Source: a bacterium (GTDB lineage: Bacteria > Arandabacterota > Arandabacteria > Arandabacterales > JALGWA01). From it: 25,432 nucleotides of DNA. This document shows, one piece after another, positions 7,144-22,113 of this stretch (positions within the stretch are counted from its first letter, which is position 1; every line of letters begins with the position of its first letter). The position numbers were made by a program, and so were the translations under genes. Location: assembly GCA_050125095.1 (NCBI GenBank), contig JASFEA010000028.1, forward strand, positions 1 to 25,432, in the 5' to 3' direction. Under the pieces are notes generated by a model. The model was given only the letters and a program-made list of their open reading frames with translations, was not told the DNA's origin and did not search any database.

Positions 7144-9366
7144 ATGCGCCGTTTTACGTCTCTTCTCATCGTTCTTATTCTTGTTGTTCTCGCCTCAACC
7201 GCTTTCGCCGCCATCGGCGAGAAGTCTCTCGTCCGCGTCTACTTCGACAGCCCCGAGCACCGAAGCGCGGTGCTTAAGGAGTTCGACGACGTGGCCGGGC
7301 GTGCCAACAGCCGCTTCGCCGATATCGTGGTGCCCGGGGATAAGATGGCCGAGCTCATGGCTCTCGCCCCCAAATACGAGATCCTCATAGCCGATATTGA
7401 CCAGCTCATGCGGGACCGCGGCGTGCTGGATGTGGGAAGCGCATATCACACGTATGAAGAAGTGAACGCCGAGATGGACAGCATCGCGGCGCTCTATCCG
7501 AGCATATGCCAGGTCGACTCGGTCGGCGACACCTGGGAGGGGAGGACCATATACGGCATCAAGGTATCCGACAATGTCGCGACAACCGAGGACGAGCCGC
7601 GAGTGCTCTATATCGGTATGCATCACGCGCGAGAGATAATCACCACCGAGATACCGCTTTACATACTCTTCCACCTCGTAGATAACTACGGTTCCGACCC
7701 CAGGATCACAGACCTTGTGAACAACCGCGAGTTCTACATCATCCCGTGCCTCAATCCCGACGGCCGCGAGTACGTGGAGCACACGGGCGACTGGCGCAAG
7801 AACCGCAGGAACAACGGCGACGGCACCTACGGCGTCGACCTCAATCGGAACTACGGCTACATGTGGGGCTATGACGACAGCGGCTCCAGCCCCAATACGG
7901 GCGATGAGACTTACCGCGGCCCCTACGGCTTCTCCGAGCCCGAGACCCAGGCCATCAAGAACCTGTGCGAGGCGATTCAGTTCTCCACCGGCATCTCATA
8001 TCATTCCCATGGCGACCTCATCATATATCCGTACGGTTATGACTACGTCGTAAACGACGAGGCCGACGTCTTCCAGCGGCTCGCGGACAGCATGGCCACG
8101 TTCAACAACTACCACGCCGGCCCCATAACCGATCTCTACCCGGCCAACGGCGGCACCGACGACTGGATGTGGGGCGAACGCGGCACCAAGGACAAGGTCT
8201 ATTTCCTCACTGTAGAGGTGGGGGACGAGTTCTATCCGTCAGAGTCGGAGATACTGACGCTGTGCTCGGAGAACCTGGGCCCGGCCCTGGTGTTCGCCGA
8301 CTACGCGGATGAGCCCAGGCGCGTGCTCCCGCCCGTTGTGCCAAGTCTGGACCCCATGTCGGACAGCAATGACGGCAACTATACCGTGTCCTGGTCGACG
8401 CCGAGTCCGGACACCCTGAATCCCGCGGTCAAGTACGCGCTCACAGAGCGCATCGGCCCGAGCCGCATACTGGACGACTGCGAGGGCGACTGGGCGCATT
8501 GGATCAAAGATCTGTGGCAGCTCAGAAACGAAAGGTATCACAGCGCCGTTACGAGCTTCTATGGAGGCCGCTCGAACGACCGCAACTCGACCTTCATGTA
8601 CAAGTACGGCATGGACGTCGAGCCGACCGACACGCTCACGTTCTGGACCTGGTATGAAATCGAGGAGAACTGGGACTACGCGTACGTGGAAGTCTCCACG
8701 GACGGCGGCACCACCTTCCGGTCCATACCCGGCAACATCACCACGACCTATAATCCCAACGGCCAGAACGCCGGCCACGGAATCACAGGCGACTCCAATG
8801 GCTGGGTCGAGGCATTCTTCCCGCTCGGAGCGATGGCCGACACTACGACAATCGTACGTTTCCGCTATAAGACCGATGGCTACGTGCTCGAACAGGGCAT
8901 CTACGTGGATGACATCTTCCCGGTCCAGGAGTTCGACTCGTCCGCGGTCCTGAGCGACGTCATCACCAATGAGTACTACGACGTCACCGGCCAGGATGTG
9001 GGCACGTTCTACTATGAAGTGAGCGCCTGCGATGCCGAGGAACAGTGGAGCATGCTGAGCCAGAGGGAAGATATAGAAGTGCTGGCCTCGGGCGTACCCC
9101 GGAACGGCGAAGAGCCGGAGTTCGAGGCCTTCAGGAACCCGGTGCGCATAGGCCAGACGGTCAGGTTCGCGGCCGCCGCGGCCGCCAAGGACCGCGTCTT
9201 TGTTGTGGACGTCATGGGGCGCATGGTCGCCGACCTTGACGTTCCCGAGTCGGGCGCGGAGTGGGACCTCAGGGACGCTAGCGGCAACTACGTATCGCCG
9301 GGCATCTACTTCGTAAGATACGCTTCAGGCAGGGCGCCTGCCGCCAAGCTGGTGGTACTGAAGTAG
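7144..9366 (+). CDS. Secreted M14 zinc carboxypeptidase (carboxypeptidase T-like) with immune-inhibitor-A/MAM-like, FN3-like and C-terminal FlgD-Ig/T9SS-like domains
   Basis: Signal peptide ending AFA. HHARE, NPDG, WRKNR, DLNRN, SYHS and VEV motifs. WYEIEENWDYAYVEVSTDGG beta-sandwich. Tail WDLRDASGNYVSPGIYFVR. Confidence 0.93.
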   Translation: MRRFTSLLIVLILVVLASTAFAAIGEKSLVRVYFDSPEHRSAVLKEFDDVAGRANSRFADIVVPGDKMAELMALAPKYEILIADIDQLMRDRGVLDVGSAYHTYEEVNAEMDSIAALYPSICQVDSVGDTWEGRTIYGIKVSDNVATTEDEPRVLYIGMHHAREIITTEIPLYILFHLVDNYGSDPRITDLVNNREFYIIPCLNPDGREYVEHTGDWRKNRRNNGDGTYGVDLNRNYGYMWGYDDSGSSPNTGDETYRGPYGFSEPETQAIKNLCEAIQFSTGISYHSHGDLIIYPYGYDYVVNDEADVFQRLADSMATFNNYHAGPITDLYPANGGTDDWMWGERGTKDKVYFLTVEVGDEFYPSESEILTLCSENLGPALVFADYADEPRRVLPPVVPSLDPMSDSNDGNYTVSWSTPSPDTLNPAVKYALTERIGPSRILDDCEGDWAHWIKDLWQLRNERYHSAVTSFYGGRSNDRNSTFMYKYGMDVEPTDTLTFWTWYEIEENWDYAYVEVSTDGGTTFRSIPGNITTTYNPNGQNAGHGITGDSNGWVEAFFPLGAMADTTTIVRFRYKTDGYVLEQGIYVDDIFPVQEFDSSAVLSDVITNEYYDVTGQDVGTFYYEVSACDAEEQWSMLSQREDIEVLASGVPRNGEEPEFEAFRNPVRIGQTVRFAAAAAAKDRVFVVDVMGRMVADLDVPESGAEWDLRDASGNYVSPGIYFVRYASGRAPAAKLVVLK

Positions 9367-9575: not shown

Positions 9576-9965
9576 CTAGTCGCCCAGCACCTCGTTTACC
9601 GCGGCCTGCAGTTTCGCGGGCTCTATGGGCTTCTCAACGTACACGGCGGGCTTTTCGCCCATGTACTTGCCCATTTCATCCGCCGAGAATCCGAGCCCCA
9701 CCTTCTCCTTAATGCCGGTCAGCATGATCACCGGCGTGGCCTTGAGTTCGTCGTCCTGCTTGATGATGCCGAATACCTGGAAGCCGTCCTTGCCCGGCAT
9801 CTGAACGTCCAGAATGACCAGGTCGGGCTTCTCCCGACGCATCTTCTCGATACCACTGTCGCCATCGTGGGCGAAGACGACCTGGTGCCCCATGGTCTCA
9901 AGGATCTCCTTGGCGAAATCGACGGCATCTGGCTCATCGTCGATCAGCAGCACTTTCTTGGGCAT
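9576..9965 (-). CDS. Single-domain response regulator (CheY-like receiver)
   Basis: LIDDE, phosphoacceptor LDVQMP, MLTG, YVEKP; SD AAGGAGG upstream. Confidence 0.95.
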   Translation of the reverse strand: MPKKVLLIDDEPDAVDFAKEILETMGHQVVFAHDGDSGIEKMRREKPDLVILDVQMPGKDGFQVFGIIKQDDELKATPVIMLTGIKEKVGLGFSADEMGKYMGEKPAVYVEKPIEPAKLQAAVNEVLGD

Positions 9966-10022: not shown

Positions 10023-10051
10023 ATTATGGGCTCTCGGGCGCCGGGTGTCAA
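10023..10051 (-). promoter_or_regulatory. Sigma70 promoter for the response regulator
   Basis: Minus strand TTGACA (10051-10046), 17-bp spacer, CATAAT (10028-10023). Confidence 0.7.
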
Positions 10052-10181
10052 CAATATATTTGGCCGTACAGAGACGTTGCAGAGGCCCCGGAAAAGGTGT
10101 AGCATCGGATATGCTTGCGTTTGGGCACGAGATCGGCCGCCCGGCCCATACCGCCGGGCCGTCTTGAGGGAGGGCAGCGAC

Positions 10182-11825
10182 TTGGTAAGCATAGTGGTAA
10201 CCAGCGAGGGACAGCAAATCCACAAGGTCAAGGCGAGTCAGGACACGTATATCCTCGGCCGCCACGACTCCTGCGATATTATGCTCGAGGACAAGACCAT
10301 ATCGAGGAAGCATGCCCGGCTCGAGATCAAGGACGATGAGGCGTTTGTCGAGGACCTGGGCTCGAGGAACGGGACATACGTGAACGGCCAGAAGGTCTCC
10401 CGAAAGCAGGTGGCGTCAGGCGACAGCATAGTCATAGGCAAGTTCACCATTACCTTAGAGGGGCTGGCGACCAGCACTGAGAAGCAGGGTGGGCCGGGCT
10501 CGTCGGACGGTGGGCGGGATGACTCGGGGCGGGCCGAATCCCGGCGAGCAGACTCGGGCGGTGCCACTATCCTGACGTCTCTGGACGCCAGCAAGATCGG
10601 CCGCGGCCAGGACATCAAGGACGGCGAAGTCGACCCCGGGGCGGCCACCGAACGCCTCTCGACGCTATACGAGCTCGGCCAGAAGCTCTGCGGCCGGCTC
10701 GGGACCTCGGATATCGCCGGCACCTTCCTCGACATGCTGCTCCGCGTGTTCGATAAGGCCGACCGCGCCGTAGTGCTCGTGGAGGACAGGATGAGCCGGG
10801 AGCTCATGCCCATAGCCGCACTCGACCGCAAGGGCGAGCCCGGTGAGATAAAGCTCTCGTCGACGGTTGTGAACTCGGTCTTAAAGGACAAGTGCGCCGT
10901 GCTTTGCACGGATACGACTGCGGATGAAAGGTTTGCCGAGTCACGCAGCCTCCAGGACCTGAGGATACAGTCCATCATGTGCGTGCCCCTGCTGGCGGCC
11001 GACACCGTGATAGGCATGGTGGAGGTGAGCTCGGCCAAGGGAGGCATAACCTTCAGCGAGGAGGACCTCCGGCTCCTGACGGGGCTGTCATCGGAAGTGA
11101 GCATCGCGCTTGAGAACGCCCGCCTCTACGACCAGGTGGAGCAGTCCAAGCGCCTCGCGGCCATAGGCCAGACCGTATCGGGCGTGGCCCATTGCGTAAA
11201 GAATGTCTTGAACGGCATAGACGGCGGGCTCTTCATAGCAAGGAATGCGCTCGAATCCAATAACTCGGAGAAGCTCGAGAAGGGCTGGGAGATGCTCGAC
11301 CGGAACGCAGGCTTCTTAAAGACCCTCGTGCTGGACATGCTCGACTACTCAAAGCACCGTGAGCCAGAGTACGAGGAAGTGGAACTCGCCGCCTACATGG
11401 AGGACCTGAGGTCCTTCGTGGCCGACAGGGCGTCGGCCATGAAGGTCGAACTCGCGTTTGAGACCGATGAGAGCCTTAAAGTCGTGAAACTCGATGTGAG
11501 GCAGTCCAAGCGCGCCTTCTTAAACATCATCGGAAACGCCATAGAGGCCACCCCCGAGGGCGGAAGGGTGGAGGTATCGGCCAGGAGGAAGTCGGGCTCC
11601 GAGTTCGACCTAATAATCTCCGATACTGGAACGGGCATACCCGAAGACAAGATAGACACCATATTCGAGCCCTTCTTCTCGACCAAGGGCTCCAAGGGGA
11701 CCGGCCTCGGGCTTCCCGTGACCAAGAAGATAATCGAAGAGCACCGGGGCACCATAGAGATAGAGTCAAAAGAGGGCGAGGGCACCACCTTCACCATCAC
11801 CCTCCCCACTGGGGTCAGGTCTTGA
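10182..11825 (+). CDS. Cytoplasmic FHA-GAF-histidine kinase
   Basis: FHA motifs GR, ISRKHA, DLGSRNGTYVN. GAF motifs SIMCVPL, FSEEDL, IALENA. H-box AHCVKN, N-box NIIGNAIEA, G1 DTGTG, F box FEPFFSTK, G2 GTGLGL. In-frame TTG 10182 with GAGGGAGG SD preferred over ATG 10026. Confidence 0.92.
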   Translation: MVSIVVTSEGQQIHKVKASQDTYILGRHDSCDIMLEDKTISRKHARLEIKDDEAFVEDLGSRNGTYVNGQKVSRKQVASGDSIVIGKFTITLEGLATSTEKQGGPGSSDGGRDDSGRAESRRADSGGATILTSLDASKIGRGQDIKDGEVDPGAATERLSTLYELGQKLCGRLGTSDIAGTFLDMLLRVFDKADRAVVLVEDRMSRELMPIAALDRKGEPGEIKLSSTVVNSVLKDKCAVLCTDTTADERFAESRSLQDLRIQSIMCVPLLAADTVIGMVEVSSAKGGITFSEEDLRLLTGLSSEVSIALENARLYDQVEQSKRLAAIGQTVSGVAHCVKNVLNGIDGGLFIARNALESNNSEKLEKGWEMLDRNAGFLKTLVLDMLDYSKHREPEYEEVELAAYMEDLRSFVADRASAMKVELAFETDESLKVVKLDVRQSKRAFLNIIGNAIEATPEGGRVEVSARRKSGSEFDLIISDTGTGIPEDKIDTIFEPFFSTKGSKGTGLGLPVTKKIIEEHRGTIEIESKEGEGTTFTITLPTGVRS

Positions 11826-11864
11826 AATGCACAATCTCCTGGGGTCAGGTCTGACTTTGCACAA
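11809..11864. repeat. Direct repeat of a CTGGGGTCAGGTCT...TGCACAA unit with 30-bp period (REP-like)
   Basis: ctggggtcaggtcttgaaatgcacaa (11809-11834) and ctggggtcaggtctgactttgcacaa (11839-11864); the first copy contains the kinase stop codon. Confidence 0.8.
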
Positions 11865-11973
11865 CCCCCCGGGCTCCCTCGTCACGGCCCCAAACGGCGC
11901 ATTTTTTCTGCTTTTCAACCCCGCGGATTTCTGTTAGGTTTTCTCTTGGACACCCGCATCAGCAGCACCATAT

Positions 11974-12001
11974 TTGACCAGGTTTATACCCGAAATACAC
12001 T
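11974..12001 (+). promoter_or_regulatory. Possible sigma70 promoter for the HMGS cluster
   Basis: TTGACC, 16-bp spacer, TACACT; followed by the SD AAGGGAGGGAG before ATG 12030. Confidence 0.35.
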
Positions 12002-12029
12002 CGTCTAAGCACTTCTAAGGGAGGGAGTT

Positions 12030-13076
12030 ATGGCGGGAATCGTAGGCTACGGGGCGTACGCTCCGCGTTACAGAATCAAAGTCGAGGAAATCGCCAAAGT
12101 CTGGGGCGCGGACGCCCCCAGCTACAAGCGCGGCCTCATGCTCAGGGAGAAATCCGTGCCCGCCGCCGACCAGGACGTGATAACCATGTCGGTGGAGGCG
12201 GCCCGGAACGCTGTCAAGAGGGCCAAAATCGACCCCAAGAAGATCGGCGCCATATACATAGGCTCCGAGTCGCACCCATACGCGGTCAAGCCCTCGGGCA
12301 CCGTGGTCGCGGAGGCCATCGGGGCCACGCCCGAGATCCACTGCGCCGACTTCGAGTTCGCCTGCAAGGCCGGCTCGGAGGGCATGTTCGTGGCCTTAAG
12401 CCTCATAGACGCGGGCACCATGGACTACGCCCTCGCCATAGGTGCCGACACCTCGCAGGGAGCCCCCGGCGACGCCCTCGAGTACTCGGCCTCGGCGGGA
12501 GCGGCGGCCTACATCATGGGAAAGACCGACACCGTGGCCGACTGCGAGCACACTTATGCATTCATGACCGACACGCCCGACTTCTGGCGCCGCGAGTACA
12601 TGCACTACCCGCGCCACGCCGGGCGCTTTACGGGCGCGCCCGCCTATTTCAAGCACGTAACGGGCTGCGCCAGGGGCATTATGGAGAAGTCCGGCACCAA
12701 GCCCGCCGACTTCAATTACGCCATCTTCCACCAGCCCAACGGCAAGTTCCCCTCGACGGTGGCCAAGAAGCTCGGCTTTAGACCTGAGCAGATTGAGCCC
12801 GGGCTCCTCTGCCCCAGGCTCGGCAACACTTATTCGGGCTCCTCGCCCATGGGCCTTTCGGCAACTCTGGACGTCGCCAAGCCGGGCGACCTCATTCTCA
12901 TGTGTTCATACGGTTCGGGCGCGGGAAGCGACGGCTTCATATTCCGCGTCACCGATCGCATAAAGGAGGTCCAGGACCTGGCCTTCAAGGTCACCGACTA
13001 CCTGGACAAGCACAAGTTCTACCTGCAGTACGGCGAGTACGCCAAGCTCCGCAGGAAGATACGCAAAGGCGAATAA
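12030..13076 (+). CDS. Hydroxymethylglutaryl-CoA synthase, archaeal type
   Basis: 348 aa. [24 protein letters not shown] (catalytic Glu), EFACKAG (catalytic Cys), [13 protein letters not shown] (His), [16 protein letters not shown] and YGEYAK match the archaeal HMGS signature. Confidence 0.93.
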
Positions 13077-13104
13077 CTGAATATACAGAGTGAGGGATAG
13101 GGTT

Positions 13105-14262
13105 ATGAGAGACGTTGCAGTAATCGGAGTCGGAATGATCAAGTGGGGCGAGCTCTGGGACAAGTCGCTCCGCGATTTATACGTCGAGGCGGCCCTGAAG
13201 GCCATAGACGACGCCGGGGTGGACAAGATTGACGCCCTCTACGCCGGCTGCATGTCCTCCGGCCTCTTCGTGGGCCAGGAGCACATCGGCGCGCTCGTCG
13301 CCGACTATCTCGGGATGGCGCCCATACCGGGGACGCGCGTCGAGTCGGCATGCGCCTCGGGCGGGCTTGCCATGAGGTGCGGCTTGATGGACGTGGCCTC
13401 GGGCATGAATGACATCGTGCTCGTGGGCGGGGTCGAGAAGATGACCGACGTCGACGGCGGCGGCGCCACCTTCGCGCTAGCAACGGCGGCCGACCAGGAG
13501 TATGAGGTCTATAACGGCGTCACGTTCCCCGGCCTCTACGCCATGATGGCGCGCGCCCATATGGAGCGCCACGGCACGACGCGCAAGCACCTCTCCATGG
13601 TCTCGGTCAAGAACCATGCGAACGGCGCCAAGAACGAGAACGCCCAGTACCGCATGAACCTCACCACCGACCAGGTCGAAGGCTCGGTCATGGTCGCGGA
13701 CCCCCTGACCATATTAGACTGCTCCCCTATTACCGACGGCGCGGCGGCTGCGATTATCTGCCCGCTCGATATGGCCGAGAAGATCGCCAAGAAGGCCGTG
13801 ATCAAGGTCACGGGCTCGGGGCACGCGACAGATATGATGGCGCTTCACCAGAGGAAGGACATCACATGGCTCTCGGCCGTCGAGAAGGCCGGCCAGGATG
13901 CTTACAAGATGGCGGGCGCAAAGCCCGGCGACATCGATCTCGTCGAGGTTCACGACTGCTTCACCATAGCCGAGATCATGACTATCGAGGCCCTCGGATT
14001 TGCAGAGAAGGGCAAGGGCGGCAAGCTCACCGAGGCCGGCGAGACGGCCATCGGCGGCAGGATCCCGGTGAACACTTCGGGCGGCCTCAAGTCCAAGGGC
14101 CACCCGGTGGGGGCCACCGGCGTCGCCCAGATAGTAGAGGTCGTGGAGCAGCTCCGCGGCGAGAGCGGCGAGAGACAGGTCAAGGGTGCGAAGCGCGGCA
14201 TGACCCAGAACATGGGGGGGACCGGCGCGAGCTCCGTTTGCCATATTCTGGAGGTAGCATAA
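13105..14262 (+). CDS. Acetyl-CoA C-acetyltransferase (thiolase), archaeal/SCP-x-like type
   Basis: [10 protein letters not shown] start, ESACASG (catalytic Cys), [33 protein letters not shown] 13105 preferred over GTG 13090. Confidence 0.93.
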
Positions 14263-14661
14263 ATGTCAACTTCAGCCAGATACTGGAGAGAGATACCACA
14301 GCGTTACCGCTACGAGGCCGCCAAGTGCAAGGGCTGCGGCGAGGTTCACTTCCCGCCGCGCCTCATCTGCCCGGGCTGCAAGGGTCGGACCTTCGAGACC
14401 GTCGTGCTCTCAGATAAGGGCAAGGTCGAGACCTTCACCGTGATCCGCGTGGCCCCCTGCGAGTACACCGACGAGGCGCCTTACCCCATAGGCATCATCG
14501 AGCTGGATGACGGCGTCAAGGTGCAGTGCCAGATTGCGGACTGCCCCATCGAAGACCTCAAGACGGGCATGCCCGTCCGAATCGAGTTCAGGAAGGTGAA
14601 GGAAGAGGGGGAGGCAGGCATACTCTGTTACGGCTTCAAGGCCGTGCCGGCAGGAGACTAG
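14263..14661 (+). CDS. DUF35 Zn-ribbon + OB-fold protein (thiolase/HMGS scaffold)
   Basis: RYWRE, CKGC...FPPRLICPGC rubredoxin-like ribbon, GKVETFT, PY.IGIIEL, YGFK. Starts immediately after the thiolase stop (TAAATG). Confidence 0.93.
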   Translation: MSTSARYWREIPQRYRYEAAKCKGCGEVHFPPRLICPGCKGRTFETVVLSDKGKVETFTVIRVAPCEYTDEAPYPIGIIELDDGVKVQCQIADCPIEDLKTGMPVRIEFRKVKEEGEAGILCYGFKAVPAGD

Positions 14662-14666
14662 CGAAC

Positions 14667-15461
14667 GTGACTGACTACGGATCTTATGAGACGGTAGAAG
14701 TCAGGCTCAAGGACAAGGTCCTCTGGATCGCCTTAAACAGGCCCGACGTGAGGAACGCCTTCAATGAGGTCATGATAGCCGACCTATTGGCCGTTCTTGC
14801 CAAGGCAAAGCAAGACAACGGCATCCGGCTTGTGGTGCTCACCGGAAACGGCAAGGCCTTCTGCGCGGGCGCCGACCTTCACTGGATGAAGAAGATGAAG
14901 GACTTCACCGTCGAGGAGAACTACAAGGACGCCCTCGAGCTCGCCGAGCTCATGTATAACCTCTATATGCTGCCCAAGCCCACCATAGCGAGGGTGAACG
15001 GGGCGTCCATCGGCGGGAGTAACGGCCTCGTGGCCGCATGCGACATCGTGGTGGCCTCCCACCGGGCCGAGTTCAGCCTGAGCGAGGTCAAGATAGGTCT
15101 CGTGCCGGCCTGCATCGGGCCCTATCTCATGAAGAAGGTGGGCGAGAGGTCGTGCCGCGAGCTCTTCACCACGGGCGAGCGAATCTCGGCCGACAAGGCC
15201 ATGCGGCTCGGGCTTGTAAACGACGTCGTGACGCATGGCAATCTTACGCGCCGCGTGGAGGAGTACGCCTCCAATCTCATAACGAGCGGGCCCCACGCCC
15301 TGGCAGTGGCCAAGGACTTGATCAGCAATCTTGCCGAGATGCCGCTTGAGGAGGCCAAGGAATACACGGCCAGGGTCATAGCCGAGCTCCGCGTGGGAGA
15401 TGAGGCCCAGGAGGGCATGACGGCTTTCCTGGAGAAGCGCAAGCCGGGCTGGATGACGTAG
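14667..15461 (+). CDS. liuC: Crotonase-family enzyme, methylglutaconyl-CoA hydratase (LiuC)-like
   Basis: LNRPDVRNAFN, FCAGADLHWMK, GGSNGLVAACD, FSLSEVKIGLVPACIGPY and EAQEGMTAFLEKRKPGW resemble the Pseudomonas-type LiuC pattern. GTG 14667 has AGGAG 10 nt upstream. Exact substrate is inferred. Confidence 0.75.
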   Translation: MTDYGSYETVEVRLKDKVLWIALNRPDVRNAFNEVMIADLLAVLAKAKQDNGIRLVVLTGNGKAFCAGADLHWMKKMKDFTVEENYKDALELAELMYNLYMLPKPTIARVNGASIGGSNGLVAACDIVVASHRAEFSLSEVKIGLVPACIGPYLMKKVGERSCRELFTTGERISADKAMRLGLVNDVVTHGNLTRRVEEYASNLITSGPHALAVAKDLISNLAEMPLEEAKEYTARVIAELRVGDEAQEGMTAFLEKRKPGWMT

Positions 15462-15584
15462 CTATGAGCCATGGCTGGATGCCTTAAAGAGCAGAGCAAC
15501 GGAAGGGCGCGAGTCTGCATCTAATTTGTGTATGGTTAAGTGCGGCTTCACTTCAGGCCTTTTGATCACCTAAGGAGGATTTAT

Positions 15585-16052
15585 ATGAGCCCGAGCGAAA
15601 TCAATGTTGGAGACATGGCACCCGGTTTCAACCTCAAGGACCAGGACGGCAACGACCACAGCCTGGGCGACTACAAGGGCAAGAAGATCATTCTGAGCTT
15701 CCATCCCCTGGCATGGACCGGTCTCTGCACCACTCAGATGCAGCAGCTCGACAGTAAGTTCGACAAAATCGCCAAGCAGGGCGGTGTGGGCTTCGGCCTC
15801 AGCATCGACAGCACCTTCTGCAAGCACGCTTGGTGCAAGGACATGGGCGTTGAGAAGACACGCCTCCTCTCGGACTTTTGGCCGCATGGCGGATACGCCG
15901 CCGAGCTGGGCCTCTTCAGGGAGGTAGAGGGCACCGCAAAGCGCGCCGTGGTGATCCTGGGCACGGACGGCAAGGTGGCCTGGAAGAAGGTATACCCTGT
16001 CTCTCAACTCCCCGACATCGAAGAGATAATGAGCGAGTTCGAGAAGGCCTGA
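15585..16052 (+). CDS. Peroxiredoxin, AhpE-like (AhpC/TSA family)
   Basis: PLAWTGLC (PxxxTxxC), SID, LLSDFWPHG, KRAV; strong SD TAAGGAGG before ATG 15585. Confidence 0.9.
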   Translation: MSPSEINVGDMAPGFNLKDQDGNDHSLGDYKGKKIILSFHPLAWTGLCTTQMQQLDSKFDKIAKQGGVGFGLSIDSTFCKHAWCKDMGVEKTRLLSDFWPHGGYAAELGLFREVEGTAKRAVVILGTDGKVAWKKVYPVSQLPDIEEIMSEFEKA

Positions 16053-16124
16053 TGCTTCTCCGGGCTTGGAATCCAAAACCAGTCAGATACTCCGCCGAAT
16101 AGGTGCAATACCCGGCAAGGAGGC

Positions 16125-17953: not shown

Positions 17954-19615
17954 ATGGAGGACTTCTCAATCCTCATAGGCGGCAAGGCGGGAGACGGCAT
18001 TCGCCAGATCGGCGGTCTTGTTGCCGGCCTCCTCGGGAAACTTGGCTATCACGTCTTCTTCTGGGATGACTACCCATCCCTCATAAGAGGCGGCCACAAC
18101 TTCAGCCTCATAAGGGCCTGCCGCTGCATGATCCAGGCCAACACCAGCGATGTCGACCTTATCGTCGCCCTGAATGAAGACACCATCAAGAACCACAGTT
18201 GGCGCCTCAAGCCCAAGGGCAAGGTTGTATACGATGCCGACGCCTTCGAGGCCGAAGGCACAGGCATGAAGTTTACGAGCATCGTAAAAGACGCGGGCGG
18301 CAAGCCCATCATGCGCAACACGGCCGCCTTCGCCGTGATCGGCAGGATGCTGGGTCTCGAGTGGAGCGTCCTGGAGGAACTGGTAAATACCTCCTTTAAG
18401 AAGGAGACCGAGACCAACCTCGCCATTGCCAAGGCCGCATACGAGCAGGCCGGCGAGGCGACGCTTAATATCGAGACCGGCCCGGCCGAGCCGCTTCCCC
18501 TGATGACAGGCAATGAAGCCATCGCGCTCGGCGCCGTGGCCGCAGGCCTCGACCTCTATATCGCCTACCCCATGACGCCTTCTACGAGCATACTTCACTT
18601 CCTCGCTGCCCATGAGGAGGAGCTCGGGATTGTCACCTATCATCCCGAGAACGAGATTGCAGCGGCTGTGACCGCCATCGGCGGCGCCTACGCCGGCGCA
18701 AGGACCATGGTCGGCTCCGCAGGGGGCGGCTTCGCGCTAATGGCGGAGGCCGTGAGCCTTGCCGCCCAGAGTGAAGCGCCCGTGGTTTTCGTTGTAAGCC
18801 AGCGGCCGGGCCCGAGCACAGGCGTTCCCACATACACCACTCAGGGTGACCTCAACTTTGTCCTCTCGGCAGGTCACGGGGAGTTCCTGCGCTTTGTAGT
18901 AGCGCCCGGCGATGTCAACGAGGCCTATGAGCTCACCGGCCTTGCCATGAACATGGCATGGAAATACCAGATACCGGCGTTTGTGCTCACCGACAAGTGC
19001 CTGAGCGAAAGCACATACTGCTTCGAGACGGGAGATCCGGGATTCAAGGAAGTGAAGAATGAAAATGGCTCGCTATGGGACGGCAAGGGCGAGTACAAGC
19101 GGTATCTGGATACAGATAATGGCGTCTCGCCCCTCGCATTTCCGGGTAGAGCCGGAGCCATCGTCAAGGGCACGAGCTACGAGCACGACGAGGCCGGCAT
19201 CACCACCGAGCTCCCCGAAGCCATCGTGGCCATGCAGGATAAGCGCATGAAGAAGAGCTCTGGGCTCATAGAGGATGTCAACAACCCCGAAGCGGTTAAG
19301 ACCTACGGCAAGCCAGACTCGGACGTTGCCCTGCTCACCTGGGGCTCCACCAAGGGAGCGTGTGTGGAGGTTGCAGAGAACCTGGGGCTCAAGGTAGTCC
19401 AGCCCGTTATCCTGGAGCCCTTCCCGACAGAGGCGCTTGAGGCGGCTCTAAAGGGATCTAAGAAAGTGATTGGCGTCGAGGTCAACGTCACCGGCTGCCT
19501 GGCCGACCTGGCATCATGCCACGGAATCGAGGTTCATGAGAAGATCCTCAAATACGACGGGAGGCACTTCACCGTGGACGAGCTTCAGAAGAGGGTGGAG
19601 GGGGTGATGAAATGA
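17954..19615 (+). CDS. 2-oxoacid:ferredoxin oxidoreductase alpha subunit (fused gamma-alpha, KorA-like)
   Basis: GGKAGDG and YPSLIRGGHN (gamma); GNEAIA, YPMTP, ENEIAA, QRPGPSTG.PT...QGD, EHDE.G, WGST (alpha). Substrate not assignable. Confidence 0.95.
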   Translation: MEDFSILIGGKAGDGIRQIGGLVAGLLGKLGYHVFFWDDYPSLIRGGHNFSLIRACRCMIQANTSDVDLIVALNEDTIKNHSWRLKPKGKVVYDADAFEAEGTGMKFTSIVKDAGGKPIMRNTAAFAVIGRMLGLEWSVLEELVNTSFKKETETNLAIAKAAYEQAGEATLNIETGPAEPLPLMTGNEAIALGAVAAGLDLYIAYPMTPSTSILHFLAAHEEELGIVTYHPENEIAAAVTAIGGAYAGARTMVGSAGGGFALMAEAVSLAAQSEAPVVFVVSQRPGPSTGVPTYTTQGDLNFVLSAGHGEFLRFVVAPGDVNEAYELTGLAMNMAWKYQIPAFVLTDKCLSESTYCFETGDPGFKEVKNENGSLWDGKGEYKRYLDTDNGVSPLAFPGRAGAIVKGTSYEHDEAGITTELPEAIVAMQDKRMKKSSGLIEDVNNPEAVKTYGKPDSDVALLTWGSTKGACVEVAENLGLKVVQPVILEPFPTEALEAALKGSKKVIGVEVNVTGCLADLASCHGIEVHEKILKYDGRHFTVDELQKRVEGVMK

Positions 19616-20469
19616 GCGAGATCAACCTTAATACCTACGCCGAGAACACCTGGTGCAAGGGCTGCGGCAACTTCGGCATTCTCACTGCCGCACAGGGGGC
19701 CATAAAGAAACTCGTCGCCGAAGGCTACCCTCTCGAGAAAATCGCCATCGCCTCCGGCATCGGCTGCTCATCCAAGATAGTGGATTACATAAACGTCAAC
19801 TCCTTCTACTCCATTCACGGCAGAGTTCCGCCCACCGTTACGGGCATCAAGCTCGCCAACAAAGACCTCTCAGTCATCGGCTTTACAGGCGACGGTGACG
19901 GCTACGGCGAGGGTCTCGCGCATATCATCATGTCGGCCAAGCGCAACATCGACGTCACCATGGTGATTCACAATAACCGGGTCTACGGCCTCACCACGGG
20001 CCAGTTCACCCCCACGAGCCCGACAGGCTTTCCCGGGAAATCCACGCCACGCGGGAGCGTCGAGCACCCCTTGAATCCCTTGGAGCTCATGTTGGCGGCG
20101 GGCGCTACGTTTGTGGCGAGGGGATACTCGGTCAAAGCCGACCTTCTCGCCGACCTCATCGTCCAGGGCGTGAAACACAAGGGCTTCGCCTTCATCGATG
20201 TCCTTCAGCCCTGCTTCACTTTCTTCAACACCTTCAAATTCTATAACAACAAGGTGTATGAGCTCGAAGGACATGACCCCTCAAACCTCGAGGCGGCCCG
20301 TACGCGCGCCCGGGAGTGGAACTATGACATGGAAGCCGAGAAGATCCCCATCGGGCTCTTCTACAAGGTGGAGCGGCCATCATACGACGAGCAGGTCCTT
20401 AGGGGCCTAGTTCTCGCACAGGAGAGGGATAGGTCCGACATCCCGGCATTCATAAGGTCGCATATGTGA
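19612..20469 (+). CDS. 2-oxoacid:ferredoxin oxidoreductase beta subunit (TPP-binding, KorB-like)
   Basis: WCKGCGN, SGIGCS, HGR, GDGD, NNRVYGLTTGQ, QPC; ATGA overlap with the alpha gene. Confidence 0.95.
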   Translation: MSEINLNTYAENTWCKGCGNFGILTAAQGAIKKLVAEGYPLEKIAIASGIGCSSKIVDYINVNSFYSIHGRVPPTVTGIKLANKDLSVIGFTGDGDGYGEGLAHIIMSAKRNIDVTMVIHNNRVYGLTTGQFTPTSPTGFPGKSTPRGSVEHPLNPLELMLAAGATFVARGYSVKADLLADLIVQGVKHKGFAFIDVLQPCFTFFNTFKFYNNKVYELEGHDPSNLEAARTRAREWNYDMEAEKIPIGLFYKVERPSYDEQVLRGLVLAQERDRSDIPAFIRSHM

Positions 20470-20649
20470 CGCAGCGCCAAGCCGGACTGCGGCTCACGTC
20501 CCCTCTCATATGCTGTTTTCTTGCAGGCGTAGTTGTCTGTCAGATTCCAGCCTGGAACATTCCGAGGGAGATGAGCGTCCTTCCATATAGACGAATTAGT
20601 GCGGCGTTCCTCATTGTCTTACGTGCAGCGAGAACAGGGAGGGATCAGA

Positions 20650-22113
20650 ATGTATAGTCGGAGGAGTAATCTGCTTGTGATCAAGGGCCTGGCCTGTGCA
20701 GTTCTCGCGCTGGCGCTCCTCATGCCTTGTGAGGTTCGGGCATGTTCCACATTCAAGCTTCAGAAGGGGGGCGGGCTTGTCTACGGCCACAACCTCAATC
20801 AGGGGGACATAGGCGTACCCGGCATGATATTCATCAACAAGAGGGGCACATTCAAGCTGGGGACCACCTGGAGCCAACTCGCCACCAGGGAGCAGTCGAG
20901 ACCGTCCTCTCATTCATGGATTTCACGATATGGCTCGGTCACCTTCGATGCCATCGGCCGGGACCTGGCCGACGGGGGCATGAATGAGGTGGGTCTCTAC
21001 ATCTGGGAGATGAATGAGGACGGCGACTATATCAGGAATGACAGCCTGCCCAGGCTCTATGAACTCAACTGGATGCAGTACATCCTGGACAACTACTCCA
21101 CGGTGGACGAAGCCATACGCTGCGCCCATGAGATCGAGGTGGAGGGACCGGGAAAGCACTTCTTTGTCGGGGATGCCAGCGGGGACTGCGCCGCGGTGGC
21201 CTTCATCGACAGCCAGGTGGTCGTTAACCGGGGACATAATATGCCCGTCCCGGGGCTCTTCAACACGCCCTACGCCAGGGAGCTTGAGGTCTTGAAGTAC
21301 TACAAGGGCTTCGGGGGGCTCTATGAGCCCGACCTCGGGGACCTCCGGGTGCCCCGCTTCGTCAAGGCCGCCGTGATGGTAAGAGACTACGACCCCGCCC
21401 AGAACATAGTGGATTACGGCTTCGCCATGCTGGATTCGCTTACCGTATACGATGTGCCGGAGTGGTCCATCATATTCGATGTAAGAGACCGGCGAGTGTA
21501 CTTCAAGACCAGGTTGAACCCGGAGATAAAGACCTTCTCCATGAATGAGGTGGACTTCTCCAACAACGGGCCCGTCCTCATTCTCAATATGGACGTGGCC
21601 GAGGGTGGGGACGTCCTGGACCGGTTCCACCCGTACACCAACAAAGACATGCGGCATTTCATCGAGACATTCCTGCTCCCCATTATTCCCGAAGGCATGA
21701 TCGCCAAGGGGGGAATAACGGTAGATGAATATGTGGAGAGAACCGCCACTCACACCGATGCCGCCGCTCTGGCAGAAAACCAGTTTTTCGCAGGTGTGTG
21801 GAAGAACAAGCCCGAGGACCCGGAGAAGGAAATGACCATCACCGTGAGACTCGTCGCGAGAGGCGATGCTGTGACCGGCGGGATCTCATTCTCGGAGACG
21901 GCCGATGATTTCTACCCGCTGGACCACCTTCATATGATAGGAAACGACATCAGGTTCACCTTCGAGACGGGCGGCAAGAGAAACAAGTTCCTGGAAATCC
22001 ACGGGCATATCGATGGAGACGAGATGCAAGTCTCCCTTCTCGGCATGGAGGATTACTTCGGGGACGATTTGCTCGTGAGAGAGGGCGGGCGGCTGAGCGG
22101 GAGCGGGAAATAG
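20650..22113 (+). CDS. Secreted linear amide C-N hydrolase (choloylglycine hydrolase/penicillin V acylase-like Ntn hydrolase) with extra C-terminal domain
   Basis: Signal peptide ending VRA then CSTF (N-terminal Cys nucleophile); WISRYGSVTF, DGGMNEVGL, WMQYILDNYSTVDEA, WSIIFD. ATG 20650 follows GGGAGGG. Confidence 0.85.
   Translation: MYSRRSNLLVIKGLACAVLALALLMPCEVRACSTFKLQKGGGLVYGHNLNQGDIGVPGMIFINKRGTFKLGTTWSQLATREQSRPSSHSWISRYGSVTFDAIGRDLADGGMNEVGLYIWEMNEDGDYIRNDSLPRLYELNWMQYILDNYSTVDEAIRCAHEIEVEGPGKHFFVGDASGDCAAVAFIDSQVVVNRGHNMPVPGLFNTPYARELEVLKYYKGFGGLYEPDLGDLRVPRFVKAAVMVRDYDPAQNIVDYGFAMLDSLTVYDVPEWSIIFDVRDRRVYFKTRLNPEIKTFSMNEVDFSNNGPVLILNMDVAEGGDVLDRFHPYTNKDMRHFIETFLLPIIPEGMIAKGGITVDEYVERTATHTDAAALAENQFFAGVWKNKPEDPEKEMTITVRLVARGDAVTGGISFSETADDFYPLDHLHMIGNDIRFTFETGGKRNKFLEIHGHIDGDEMQVSLLGMEDYFGDDLLVREGGRLSGSGK

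Follow-up and report, generated by a model that had tools for sequence, protein, structure and literature searches.

The DNA window analysed here is the complete contig JASFEA010000028.1 (25,432 nucleotides (nt); contig C28 of genome G000, assembly GCA_050125095.1) of a bacterium from the order Arandabacterales, phylum Arandabacterota. Genome G000 is metagenome-assembled (3.35 Mb, 268 contigs, 91% complete, 3.5% contamination); DNA close to the window comes from wetland and sediment metagenomes. Four genes follow each other on the plus strand between positions 12030 and 15461. They encode an archaeal-type HMG-CoA synthase (HMGCS; HMG-CoA stands for 3-hydroxy-3-methylglutaryl coenzyme A; 348 aa, 12030..13076), an archaeal-type acetoacetyl-CoA thiolase of the SCP2 type (385 aa, 13105..14262), a DUF35 scaffold protein with a zinc ribbon and an OB fold (132 aa, 14263..14661), and a single-Glu crotonase, predicted to be a LiuC-type 3-methylglutaconyl-CoA hydratase (264 aa, 14667..15461, GTG start). 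An earlier note, written by a model from the letters of the contig, had described this string as an HMG-CoA-forming trio coupled to a LiuC-like hydratase; profile matches confirm the gene content. The note had further stated that the window holds neither an HMG-CoA reductase nor a lyase; no such family is among the 22 open reading frames (ORFs) of the window that were scanned.

The HMGCS scores 553 bits against TIGR00748 (cut-off 353). The thiolase scores 541 bits against NF004720 (cut-off 420) and 547 bits against NF053570, the equivalog of Methanothermococcus thermolithotrophicus, slightly below the cut-off of 600. The DUF35 protein matches PF12172 and PF01796 above cut-off. The three genes are adjacent, with gaps of 28 and 0 nt. 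For each of the three proteins the best solved match is the complex of M. thermolithotrophicus (6ESQ), with 460 bits for HMGCS (chain I), 390 bits for the thiolase (chain A) and 116 bits for DUF35 (chain E). The thiolase ORF extends from 13090 to 14262 and has an alternative GTG start at 13090; the start is probably the ATG at 13105 because the alignment to 6ESQ_A begins there at residue 1.

Aligned to 6ESQ_I, the HMGCS shows no differences in the stretches GSESHPY, EFACKAG, FHQPNG and LGNTYSG. The thiolase, aligned to 6ESQ_A, has ESACASG (CAS), VHDCF (HDCF) and GHPVGATG (GHP). In PMC12960953 (2026) the catalytic tetrad of archaeal HMGCS is given as E-C-H-N and the motifs of archaeal acetoacetyl-CoA thiolases as CxS, HDxF and GHx; the paper also states that bacterial Phl/Muc acyltransferase homologs have lost the HMGCS and thiolase catalytic motifs. 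The individual Glu, Cys, His and Asn of the window HMGCS can be tentatively assigned by reading the alignment. Retention of motifs which the Phl/Muc homologs have lost marks the trio, judged by its sequence, as genuinely HMG-CoA-forming. A Friedel-Crafts acylase of the Phl/Muc kind was ruled out since the catalytic motifs are intact.

The fourth protein matches ECH_1 with 201 bits. Its active site was aligned using the canonical crotonase of G000 itself as a reference (contig C78; GGGCE...PEV). The window crotonase and five relatives carry a Gly at the position equivalent to Glu144 (GGSNG) and retain the equivalent of Glu164 (SEV), i.e., the single-Glu LiuC-type pattern noticed earlier is real. 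According to PMC13689101, which cites Wong and Gerlt (2004) and Poudel (2015), this pattern occurs in Pseudomonas putida LiuC and P. aeruginosa AtuE, and a free carboxylate of the substrate is proposed to stand in for the missing base. The top NCBIfam model is NF004227 (gamma-carboxygeranoyl-CoA hydratase, LiuC/AtuE-type) with 257 bits, below its cut-off of 426. The crotonase surpasses no curated NCBIfam equivalog cut-off, and no methylglutaconyl-CoA hydratase model is among the 25 best matches listed. An assignment to the LiuC or 3-methylglutaconyl-CoA hydratase kind is supported by motif and genomic context, not by a curated threshold. In a FastTree phylogeny of 97 crotonases (support values are local) 85 LiuC-like sequences form one clade with 99% support, separate from ordinary crotonases. 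Inside it a Bacteroidota clade (42 rows, 99%) stands beside a group of 41 rows (90%), and every trio-linked crotonase falls into the latter.

The four genes are tightly packed, with gaps of 28, 0 and 5 nt, all on the plus strand. The DUF35 ATG (14263) directly follows the TAA of the thiolase. The DUF35 stop codon TAG occupies 14659-14661, the crotonase GTG is at 14667, and a GGAG at 14653-14656, within DUF35, is placed 10 nt ahead of the crotonase start. The earlier description of a crotonase starting 5 nt after DUF35, with its Shine-Dalgarno sequence inside DUF35, is correct for the window; the internal Shine-Dalgarno sequence holds in this genus only. No terminator-like sites were found between the four genes, and the whole scan was no richer in such sites than shuffled sequences. 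The four genes are probably co-transcribed. The leader ahead of HMGCS (11826..12029, plus strand) contains sigma-70-like hexamer pairs at 11947-11974 and 11974-12001; promoter matches are no commoner there than in shuffles (2 found, 1.2 expected). It also contains two copies of a dispersed repeat. This REP-like intergenic repeat of about 25 nt has a core TGGGGTCAGGTCT followed by TGAAATGCACA, and the window copies start at 11810 and 11840 (11810-11864), shortly before HMGCS. In the 3.35-Mb genome the 13-nt core is present 93 times, frequently between genes, in tandem or as inverted pairs. A role of this direct repeat as an operator was rejected because the core is dispersed genome-wide.

The linkage is conserved in the order, for which a set of 16 genomes was used (G000 and 15 others). 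A crotonase ortholog with 71-92% identity is present in 13 of the 15 other genomes. In 12 of these 13 it is immediately preceded by DUF35 and the thiolase; the contig of the 13th (G001) breaks off inside the crotonase. A loss of synteny in relatives, which the earlier note had named as a finding that would speak against it, did not materialise. Two genomes have no crotonase ortholog: G012 has HMGCS and thiolase on a 2.4-kb contig which ends in the thiolase, and G014, 73% complete, is also without HMGCS. The gap between DUF35 and crotonase is 5-25 nt in 11 of 14 measured loci and 73-159 nt in three. An archaeal-type HMGCS (TIGR00748) was detected in 17 of the 18 phylum-level genomes and in all four of G041-G044.

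When looking beyond the order a larger cluster emerges. A scan of public contigs for crotonase relatives yielded 80 loci with 47-92% identity to the window crotonase; genes at the G004 loci, which have a deviating codon usage, and at the high-GC loci L067, L069 and L070 were placed by tblastn. Trio genes are in the flank of 26 of the 80 loci, together with a true beta subunit of 3-methylcrotonyl-CoA carboxylase (MCC) in 15, and without it in 11 (nine of this order plus L069 and L070). Forty-two loci have MCC-beta only, and 12, mostly short contigs, have neither. An MCC linkage of the LiuC-type hydratase is seen among the orthologs (47-61% identity; MCC-beta in the flank of 57 of the 80 loci, and in G017 and G016, which are class-level relatives of G000) and is not seen in the window or the order.

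In Zixibacteria, G017, G016 and WOR-3 the gene order is HMGCS-thiolase-DUF35-MCCbeta-crotonase-(unknown)-BC-BCCP, BC and BCCP being the biotin carboxylase and the biotin carboxyl carrier protein. Compared with human MCCB the carboxyltransferase of Zixibacteria reaches 757 bits, and 739 bits when compared with MCC-beta of P. aeruginosa. Three Zixibacterial loci additionally contain Leu/Glu-dehydrogenase-like and butyrate-kinase-like genes, two an acyl-CoA dehydrogenase (ACAD). The window's four-gene string is a derived form of this larger trio-MCC-hydratase cluster in which the MCC-beta between DUF35 and crotonase was lost, a point that goes beyond the earlier note. Two side observations concern these clusters. 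In the Zixibacterial locus L051 (8876-9628) a 250-aa protein is encoded between hydratase and BC, with 36-70% identical copies in L047, L060 and L062; it belongs to no Pfam or NCBIfam family, its best Atlas score is 0.75 (a lead only), and it is absent from G017 and the order. In the WOR-3 record (L068) an HMGCS match lies about 530 kb away from the cluster.

At the Bacteroidota loci one finds liu clusters of the ordinary kind, MCCbeta-crotonase-MCCalpha-ACAD, and no gene of the trio. All five Bacteroidales liu-cluster genomes possess an HMG-CoA-lyase-like gene (178-192 bits to NF004283, cut-off 246, far above other matches), which shares a contig with the liu cluster in four of the five. An archaeal-type HMGCS above cut-off is found in none of the five. 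Trio and lyase show a complementary distribution around a common MCC-hydratase core.

Which other enzymes might make or use HMG-CoA in these organisms? HMG-CoA reductase (PF00368) was found in none of the 16 order genomes and in none of four further genomes (G017, two Zixibacteria and a WOR-3 chromosome); the search was positive in five known mevalonate-pathway genomes used as a control. PF00368 is present only in G044, a Myxococcota metagenome-assembled genome (MAG), right beside the trio-crotonase string. Fifteen of the 16 order genomes have IspH, an enzyme of the methylerythritol phosphate (MEP) route. HMG-CoA lyase or LeuA (HMGL-like, PF00682) was found neither in the order nor in the same four genomes; the order has only matches of 31-70 bits, in nine of 16 genomes, within frames of about 600 aa. 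In G000, G002 and G007 these matches are directly upstream of an OAD_beta gene. Because of this neighbour and the frame length they were rejected as HMG-CoA lyases and are read as OadA. The absence of reductase and lyase that the earlier note had seen in the window extends to G000 and to all 16 genomes of the order.

HpcH/CitE gives one match in each of the 16 order genomes. According to PMC6689899 Mycobacterium tuberculosis has a CitE-like protein as its (R)-HMG-CoA lyase. The G000 match was rejected as such a lyase, being a CitD-CitE fusion beside CitF, i.e., a citrate lyase. As a separate observation, the neighbours of CitDE and CitF are two genes of the aconitase family and one resembling isocitrate/isopropylmalate dehydrogenase, and a sodium-pumping OadA-OadB oxaloacetate decarboxylase is encoded elsewhere (G000:C9:525-8203 and G000:C162:733-3673); taken together they suggest citrate fermentation or a reductive branch.

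The CoA_trans family PF01144, which covers AibA/B-type enzymes and acetoacetate CoA-transferases, has no match in G000 and occurs in one of the 16 order genomes. IlvD was found in none of the 16. Ketol-acid reductoisomerase (KARI) is present in none of three genomes of the window's family and in 11 of 13 of the sister family. Canonical synthesis of branched-chain amino acids appears to be missing in the order. With neither IlvD nor LeuA, no KARI in the family and with secreted peptidases, leucine is probably taken up as food and is not a product.

The order carries two carboxyltransferase paralogs, termed type A and type B. Type A (574 aa, G000:C42:8639-10363) lies between an ATP-grasp BC (450 aa) and a BCCP (214 aa) in a three-gene acyl-CoA carboxylase at G000:C42:7282-11106. 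Its best solved match is GcdA with 258 bits; MCC-beta proteins reach 247-250 bits, and most beta subunits of propionyl-CoA carboxylase (PCC) score lower. That this BC-carboxyltransferase-BCCP set is the housekeeping acetyl-CoA carboxylase was rejected, AccA, AccB, AccC and AccD all being present elsewhere above cut-off. In G001, G004, G007, G009 and G013 type A is on the same contig as the crotonase, at a distance of 4-8 kb. A type A ortholog (69% identity) is present in G044, the sole other tested genome with direct trio-crotonase adjacency, and is absent from all four genomes with canonical MCC-beta. From this pattern we infer that type A may substitute for MCC, with 3-methylcrotonyl-CoA as its presumed substrate. 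The earlier note had suggested looking for MCC or a biotin-dependent decarboxylase: a canonical MCC did not turn up, a GcdA/MCC-beta-like enzyme did.

Type B (G000:C78 and C111) is located beside genes for methylmalonyl-CoA mutase, an epimerase-like protein, a second crotonase, and Leu-dehydrogenase-like and butyrate-kinase-like proteins; it resembles a propionyl/methylmalonyl-CoA enzyme. A fragment of a carboxyltransferase, at the contig end of G000:C78, was considered as the missing MCC-beta and rejected, as it is 77% identical to a G002 paralog resembling PCC or methylmalonyl-CoA decarboxylase. Next to type B an ORF of 534 aa (G000:C78:12932-14536, minus strand) is situated between the Leu-dehydrogenase-like gene and the carboxyltransferase; it has a good coding score and belongs to no Pfam or NCBIfam family. 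In G002, of the same genus, the space between the second crotonase and type B is too small for it.

What do these genes do together? The putative thiolase/HMGCS/DUF35 complex would convert three acetyl-CoA to (S)-HMG-CoA and back, the single-Glu crotonase would interconvert HMG-CoA and 3-methylglutaconyl-CoA, and a biotin-dependent carboxylase 3-methylglutaconyl-CoA and 3-methylcrotonyl-CoA. In relatives this carboxylase is the true MCC inside the cluster; in G000 it would be the divergent GcdA/MCC-beta-like enzyme, which has a BC and a BCCP of its own and lies at another place in the genome. Since neither reductase nor lyase nor AibA/B was found, flux through HMG-CoA must pass between complex and hydratase. 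That the operon in this way links acetyl-CoA with 3-methylglutaconyl-CoA and 3-methylcrotonyl-CoA we regard as likely.

The direction is a matter of inference. We propose, with no more than even confidence, that the operon forms the lyase-free end of a breakdown of leucine or isovalerate in which the complex operates in reverse. Leucine or isovalerate would be converted via isovaleryl-CoA to 3-methylcrotonyl-CoA, carboxylated at the expense of ATP and bicarbonate to 3-methylglutaconyl-CoA, and hydrated to HMG-CoA. The complex would then turn HMG-CoA and two CoA into three acetyl-CoA and so replace the missing HMG-CoA lyase, retaining one thioester more for ATP formation in an anaerobe. Retention of a thioester would matter here because the lyase route loses it as free acetoacetate and no CoA-transferase is present. 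The condensation by thiolase costs about 25 kJ/mol and the synthase step releases a similar amount, so that the sum would be near equilibrium; channelling should help in either direction. Four observations favour the catabolic direction: the conserved partners include an ATP-grasp BC and a BCCP, which a decarboxylase does not need; some clusters hold Leu-dehydrogenase-like and ACAD genes; the trio stands where other clusters have the lyase; and leucine is, as said above, probably a food of these bacteria. This reading, that the trio may stand in for HMG-CoA lyase by working backwards, was not part of the earlier note. Its extension to other phyla is held a shade more tentatively: Eisenbacteria, Zixibacteria, WOR-3 and others may share a lyase-free breakdown of leucine or isovalerate via the reversed complex, saving about one ATP per leucine, and the order studied here may in addition have swapped MCC for a GcdA-like ATP-dependent carboxylase.

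Several points weigh against this proposal. The HMG-CoA synthase step is usually treated as irreversible, and we know of no precedent for its reversal. In G044, with the reductase next door, the trio presumably runs forward. A canonical MCC-beta was not found in the order, the best matches to Zixibacterial MCC-beta being only 34-40% identical in all 16 genomes, and type A is, by its scores, about equally near to the decarboxylase subunit GcdA and to the carboxylase subunit MCC-beta. A clear ortholog of isovaleryl-CoA dehydrogenase, another enzyme the earlier note had wished to see, is missing from G000; the ACADs of this genome share 48-49% identity with the ACAD of the Bacteroidales liu clusters, and their top-scoring models are Bcd/AcrC-like. 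Because the members of the order are anaerobes (COX1 in none of 16 genomes), an oxidation of isovaleryl-CoA would require an electron sink; electron transfer flavoprotein (ETF) is present in 15 of 16. Absences have to be read with the caveat that all genomes except one are incomplete MAGs, and that the exceptional WOR-3 record, although titled 'chromosome', has a run of N within its thiolase gene (L068:3383-3480). Finally, the one RNA run (X17) among 22 runs listed gave two 151-nt contigs on 11900-16100, both on the peroxiredoxin gene downstream of the operon and none on the four genes.

The same genes can be read in the opposite direction. The complex would then operate forward, the hydratase dehydrate HMG-CoA and the biotin enzyme decarboxylate 3-methylglutaconyl-CoA to 3-methylcrotonyl-CoA, which an ACAD with ETF or another reductase would convert to isovaleryl-CoA for iso-branched lipids, or for leucine via a 2-oxoacid:ferredoxin oxidoreductase (OFOR). 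This is close to the Aib-like route contemplated in the earlier note. Myxococcus runs MvaS and LiuC in just this way, and enoyl-CoA reduction is the easy direction in anaerobes. The adjacency of trio-crotonase string and reductase in G044 and the intermediate position of the order's carboxyltransferase between GcdA and MCC-beta fit it too; an OFOR is a conserved neighbour, and with LeuA and IlvD not found a non-canonical source of leucine would be useful. Forward is moreover the only demonstrated direction of the complex (PMC12960953, citing Vogeli 2018). Of the analogy, the coupling of an HMG-CoA-forming trio to a hydratase without reductase or lyase stands, and the defining decarboxylase does not: its family occurs in one of the 16 genomes, and a strict Aib analogy is not supported. 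Every one of the carboxyltransferases is accompanied by an ATP-grasp BC subunit, superfluous for a decarboxylase, and the Zixibacterial clusters contain a true MCC-beta. A private leucine route would also be unparsimonious as valine and isoleucine would still be unmade. We consider an anabolic shunt of this kind rather unlikely, albeit the most serious competitor of a lyase-free catabolism.

Three further explanations carry less weight. The linkage might be real and the substrates unrelated to leucine, e.g., with the hydratase acting on glutaconyl-CoA next to a GcdA-like carboxylase, and the trio making HMG-CoA or a related product. The failure of the hydratase to reach any NCBIfam equivalog cut-off, the order's want of canonical MCC-beta, the GcdA match of its carboxyltransferase, and the peroxiredoxin and OFOR neighbours, which are not leucine-specific, would all agree with it. 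It is nevertheless improbable, because hydratases of this clade are part of true MCC clusters in at least three phyla, HMGCS preserves every catalytic stretch known from the solved enzyme, and no other HMG-CoA-using enzyme was found. Still less probable is a hidden, non-homologous HMG-CoA lyase, such as a citrate-lyase beta subunit or another aldolase, with a conventional end of leucine breakdown and the trio serving a separate HMG-CoA cycle. The M. tuberculosis precedent (PMC6689899) and the ubiquity of HpcH/CitE in the order speak for it. The G000 gene, however, is fused to the acyl carrier of citrate lyase, sits beside CitF and aconitase- and isocitrate-dehydrogenase-like genes, and is distant from the operon; there is no CoA-transferase to reuse acetoacetate, and it would go unexplained why the trio sits at the place of the lyase in other phyla. 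The second proposal of the earlier note, that leucine-derived HMG-CoA feeds the mevalonate pathway and isoprenoids, is rejected for this order and retains a vanishing probability. A supply of isoprenoids from leucine via HMG-CoA has been reported for haloarchaea and myxobacteria, and G044 does have a reductase beside the cluster; yet the reductase was not found in the order or in the four further genomes, and IspH of the MEP route is nearly ubiquitous in the order.

The operon shares features with several known systems and coincides with none of them. With the archaeal complex it has in common the three families and the conserved catalytic stretches; it differs in its bacterial host, which has the MEP route and no HMG-CoA reductase, in that the operon runs on into a LiuC-type hydratase, and in that the proposed direction is reversed. 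The Liu pathway of Pseudomonas consists of LiuA (isovaleryl-CoA dehydrogenase), LiuB/D (MCC), LiuC (3-methylglutaconyl-CoA hydratase) and LiuE (HMG-CoA lyase). The window hydratase has the single-Glu active site of LiuC, and its orthologs are found between MCC genes in Zixibacteria and Bacteroidales. In contrast to Pseudomonas, the order has no LiuE-type lyase, with the trio in its place, and a GcdA/MCC-beta-like carboxyltransferase whose BC and BCCP are separate proteins would replace the canonical MCC-beta. In the Aib pathway of Myxococcus xanthus MvaS, LiuC, AibA/B and AibC lead to isovaleryl-CoA. The coupling of an HMG-CoA synthase to a LiuC-type hydratase, with neither reductase nor lyase between them, is common to both, but the window HMGCS is of the archaeal three-protein type, and the AibA/B family was not found in 15 of the 16 order genomes; a biotin carboxylase with an ATP-grasp subunit is linked instead.

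For the proposed reversal an analogy in mechanism is citrate synthase. In the reversed oxidative tricarboxylic acid cycle of Desulfurella and Thermosulfidibacter its reversal has been demonstrated and saves ATP in anaerobes. In both cases a thioester-hydrolysing condensing enzyme, long held to be irreversible, would run backwards; enzyme family and pathway are different, and the reversal in the window is a proposal only. A displacement of the canonical HMG-CoA lyase by a non-homologous enzyme also has a parallel in the R-specific leucine catabolism of M. tuberculosis (Rv2498c, a CitE-like lyase; PMC6689899). That enzyme is still a lyase yielding acetoacetate, whereas the candidate in the window is a synthase/thiolase complex which would yield acetyl-CoA only. 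Among searchable full texts, a scope that leaves out subscription journals and supplements, we found no paper which links a DUF35-type trio to methylglutaconyl-CoA hydratase or MCC, none which proposes a reversal of HMGCS in leucine breakdown, and none which pairs Zixibacteria with methylcrotonyl-CoA. This agrees with the statement in the earlier note that the four-gene arrangement is not a described system.

The surroundings of the operon are partly conserved. A peroxiredoxin gene (AhpC/TSA by profile matches, 15585..16052, plus strand) follows the crotonase and is found 3' of it in 10 of the 13 order genomes holding a crotonase ortholog. Further downstream on the plus strand are the alpha (17954-19615; TIGR03710, 541 bits, cut-off 483) and beta subunits (19612-20469; TIGR02177, 291 bits, cut-off 262) of the OFOR. 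An ortholog of OFOR-alpha (62-90% identity) is present at 8 of 10 order-level public loci, the gene order being taken from G007 and G009. The nearest solved structures leave the OFOR substrate unfixed; a role as the link between 2-oxoisocaproate and isovaleryl-CoA is possible. Still further 3' a 504-aa ORF (20599-22113) belongs to no Pfam family and has a weak match (29 bits, cut-off 85) to C45 autoproteolytic acyltransferase/hydrolase proenzymes. On its other side the operon is directly preceded by genes for a stand-alone response-regulator receiver (9576-9965, minus strand) and a divergent FHA-GAF-histidine kinase (10026-11825, plus strand). Secreted M28 aminopeptidase-like and M14 carboxypeptidase-like proteins, carrying FlgD-Ig or type IX secretion system (T9SS)-type C-terminal sorting domains, are encoded at 2-1117 and 7144-9366, which fits a peptide-degrading lifestyle.

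The operon is real and conserved, and its best-supported reading, to which we would give about half of our credence, is a lyase-free variant of leucine or isovalerate breakdown built on the archaeal-type complex. If this is true, a condensing enzyme deemed irreversible would serve catabolism in anaerobes that are widespread in sediments, fermentation of leucine or isovalerate would yield more ATP than textbook schemes permit, and the automatic annotation 'mevalonate pathway' would be wrong in bacteria which possess only the MEP route. If the complex runs forward, it would be part of a second way, outside the myxobacteria, of making branched C5 units from acetyl-CoA, and this would interest those who engineer isoprenol or isovalerate production. 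In either direction the operon offers a handful of genes that can be cloned and assayed in a clear way.

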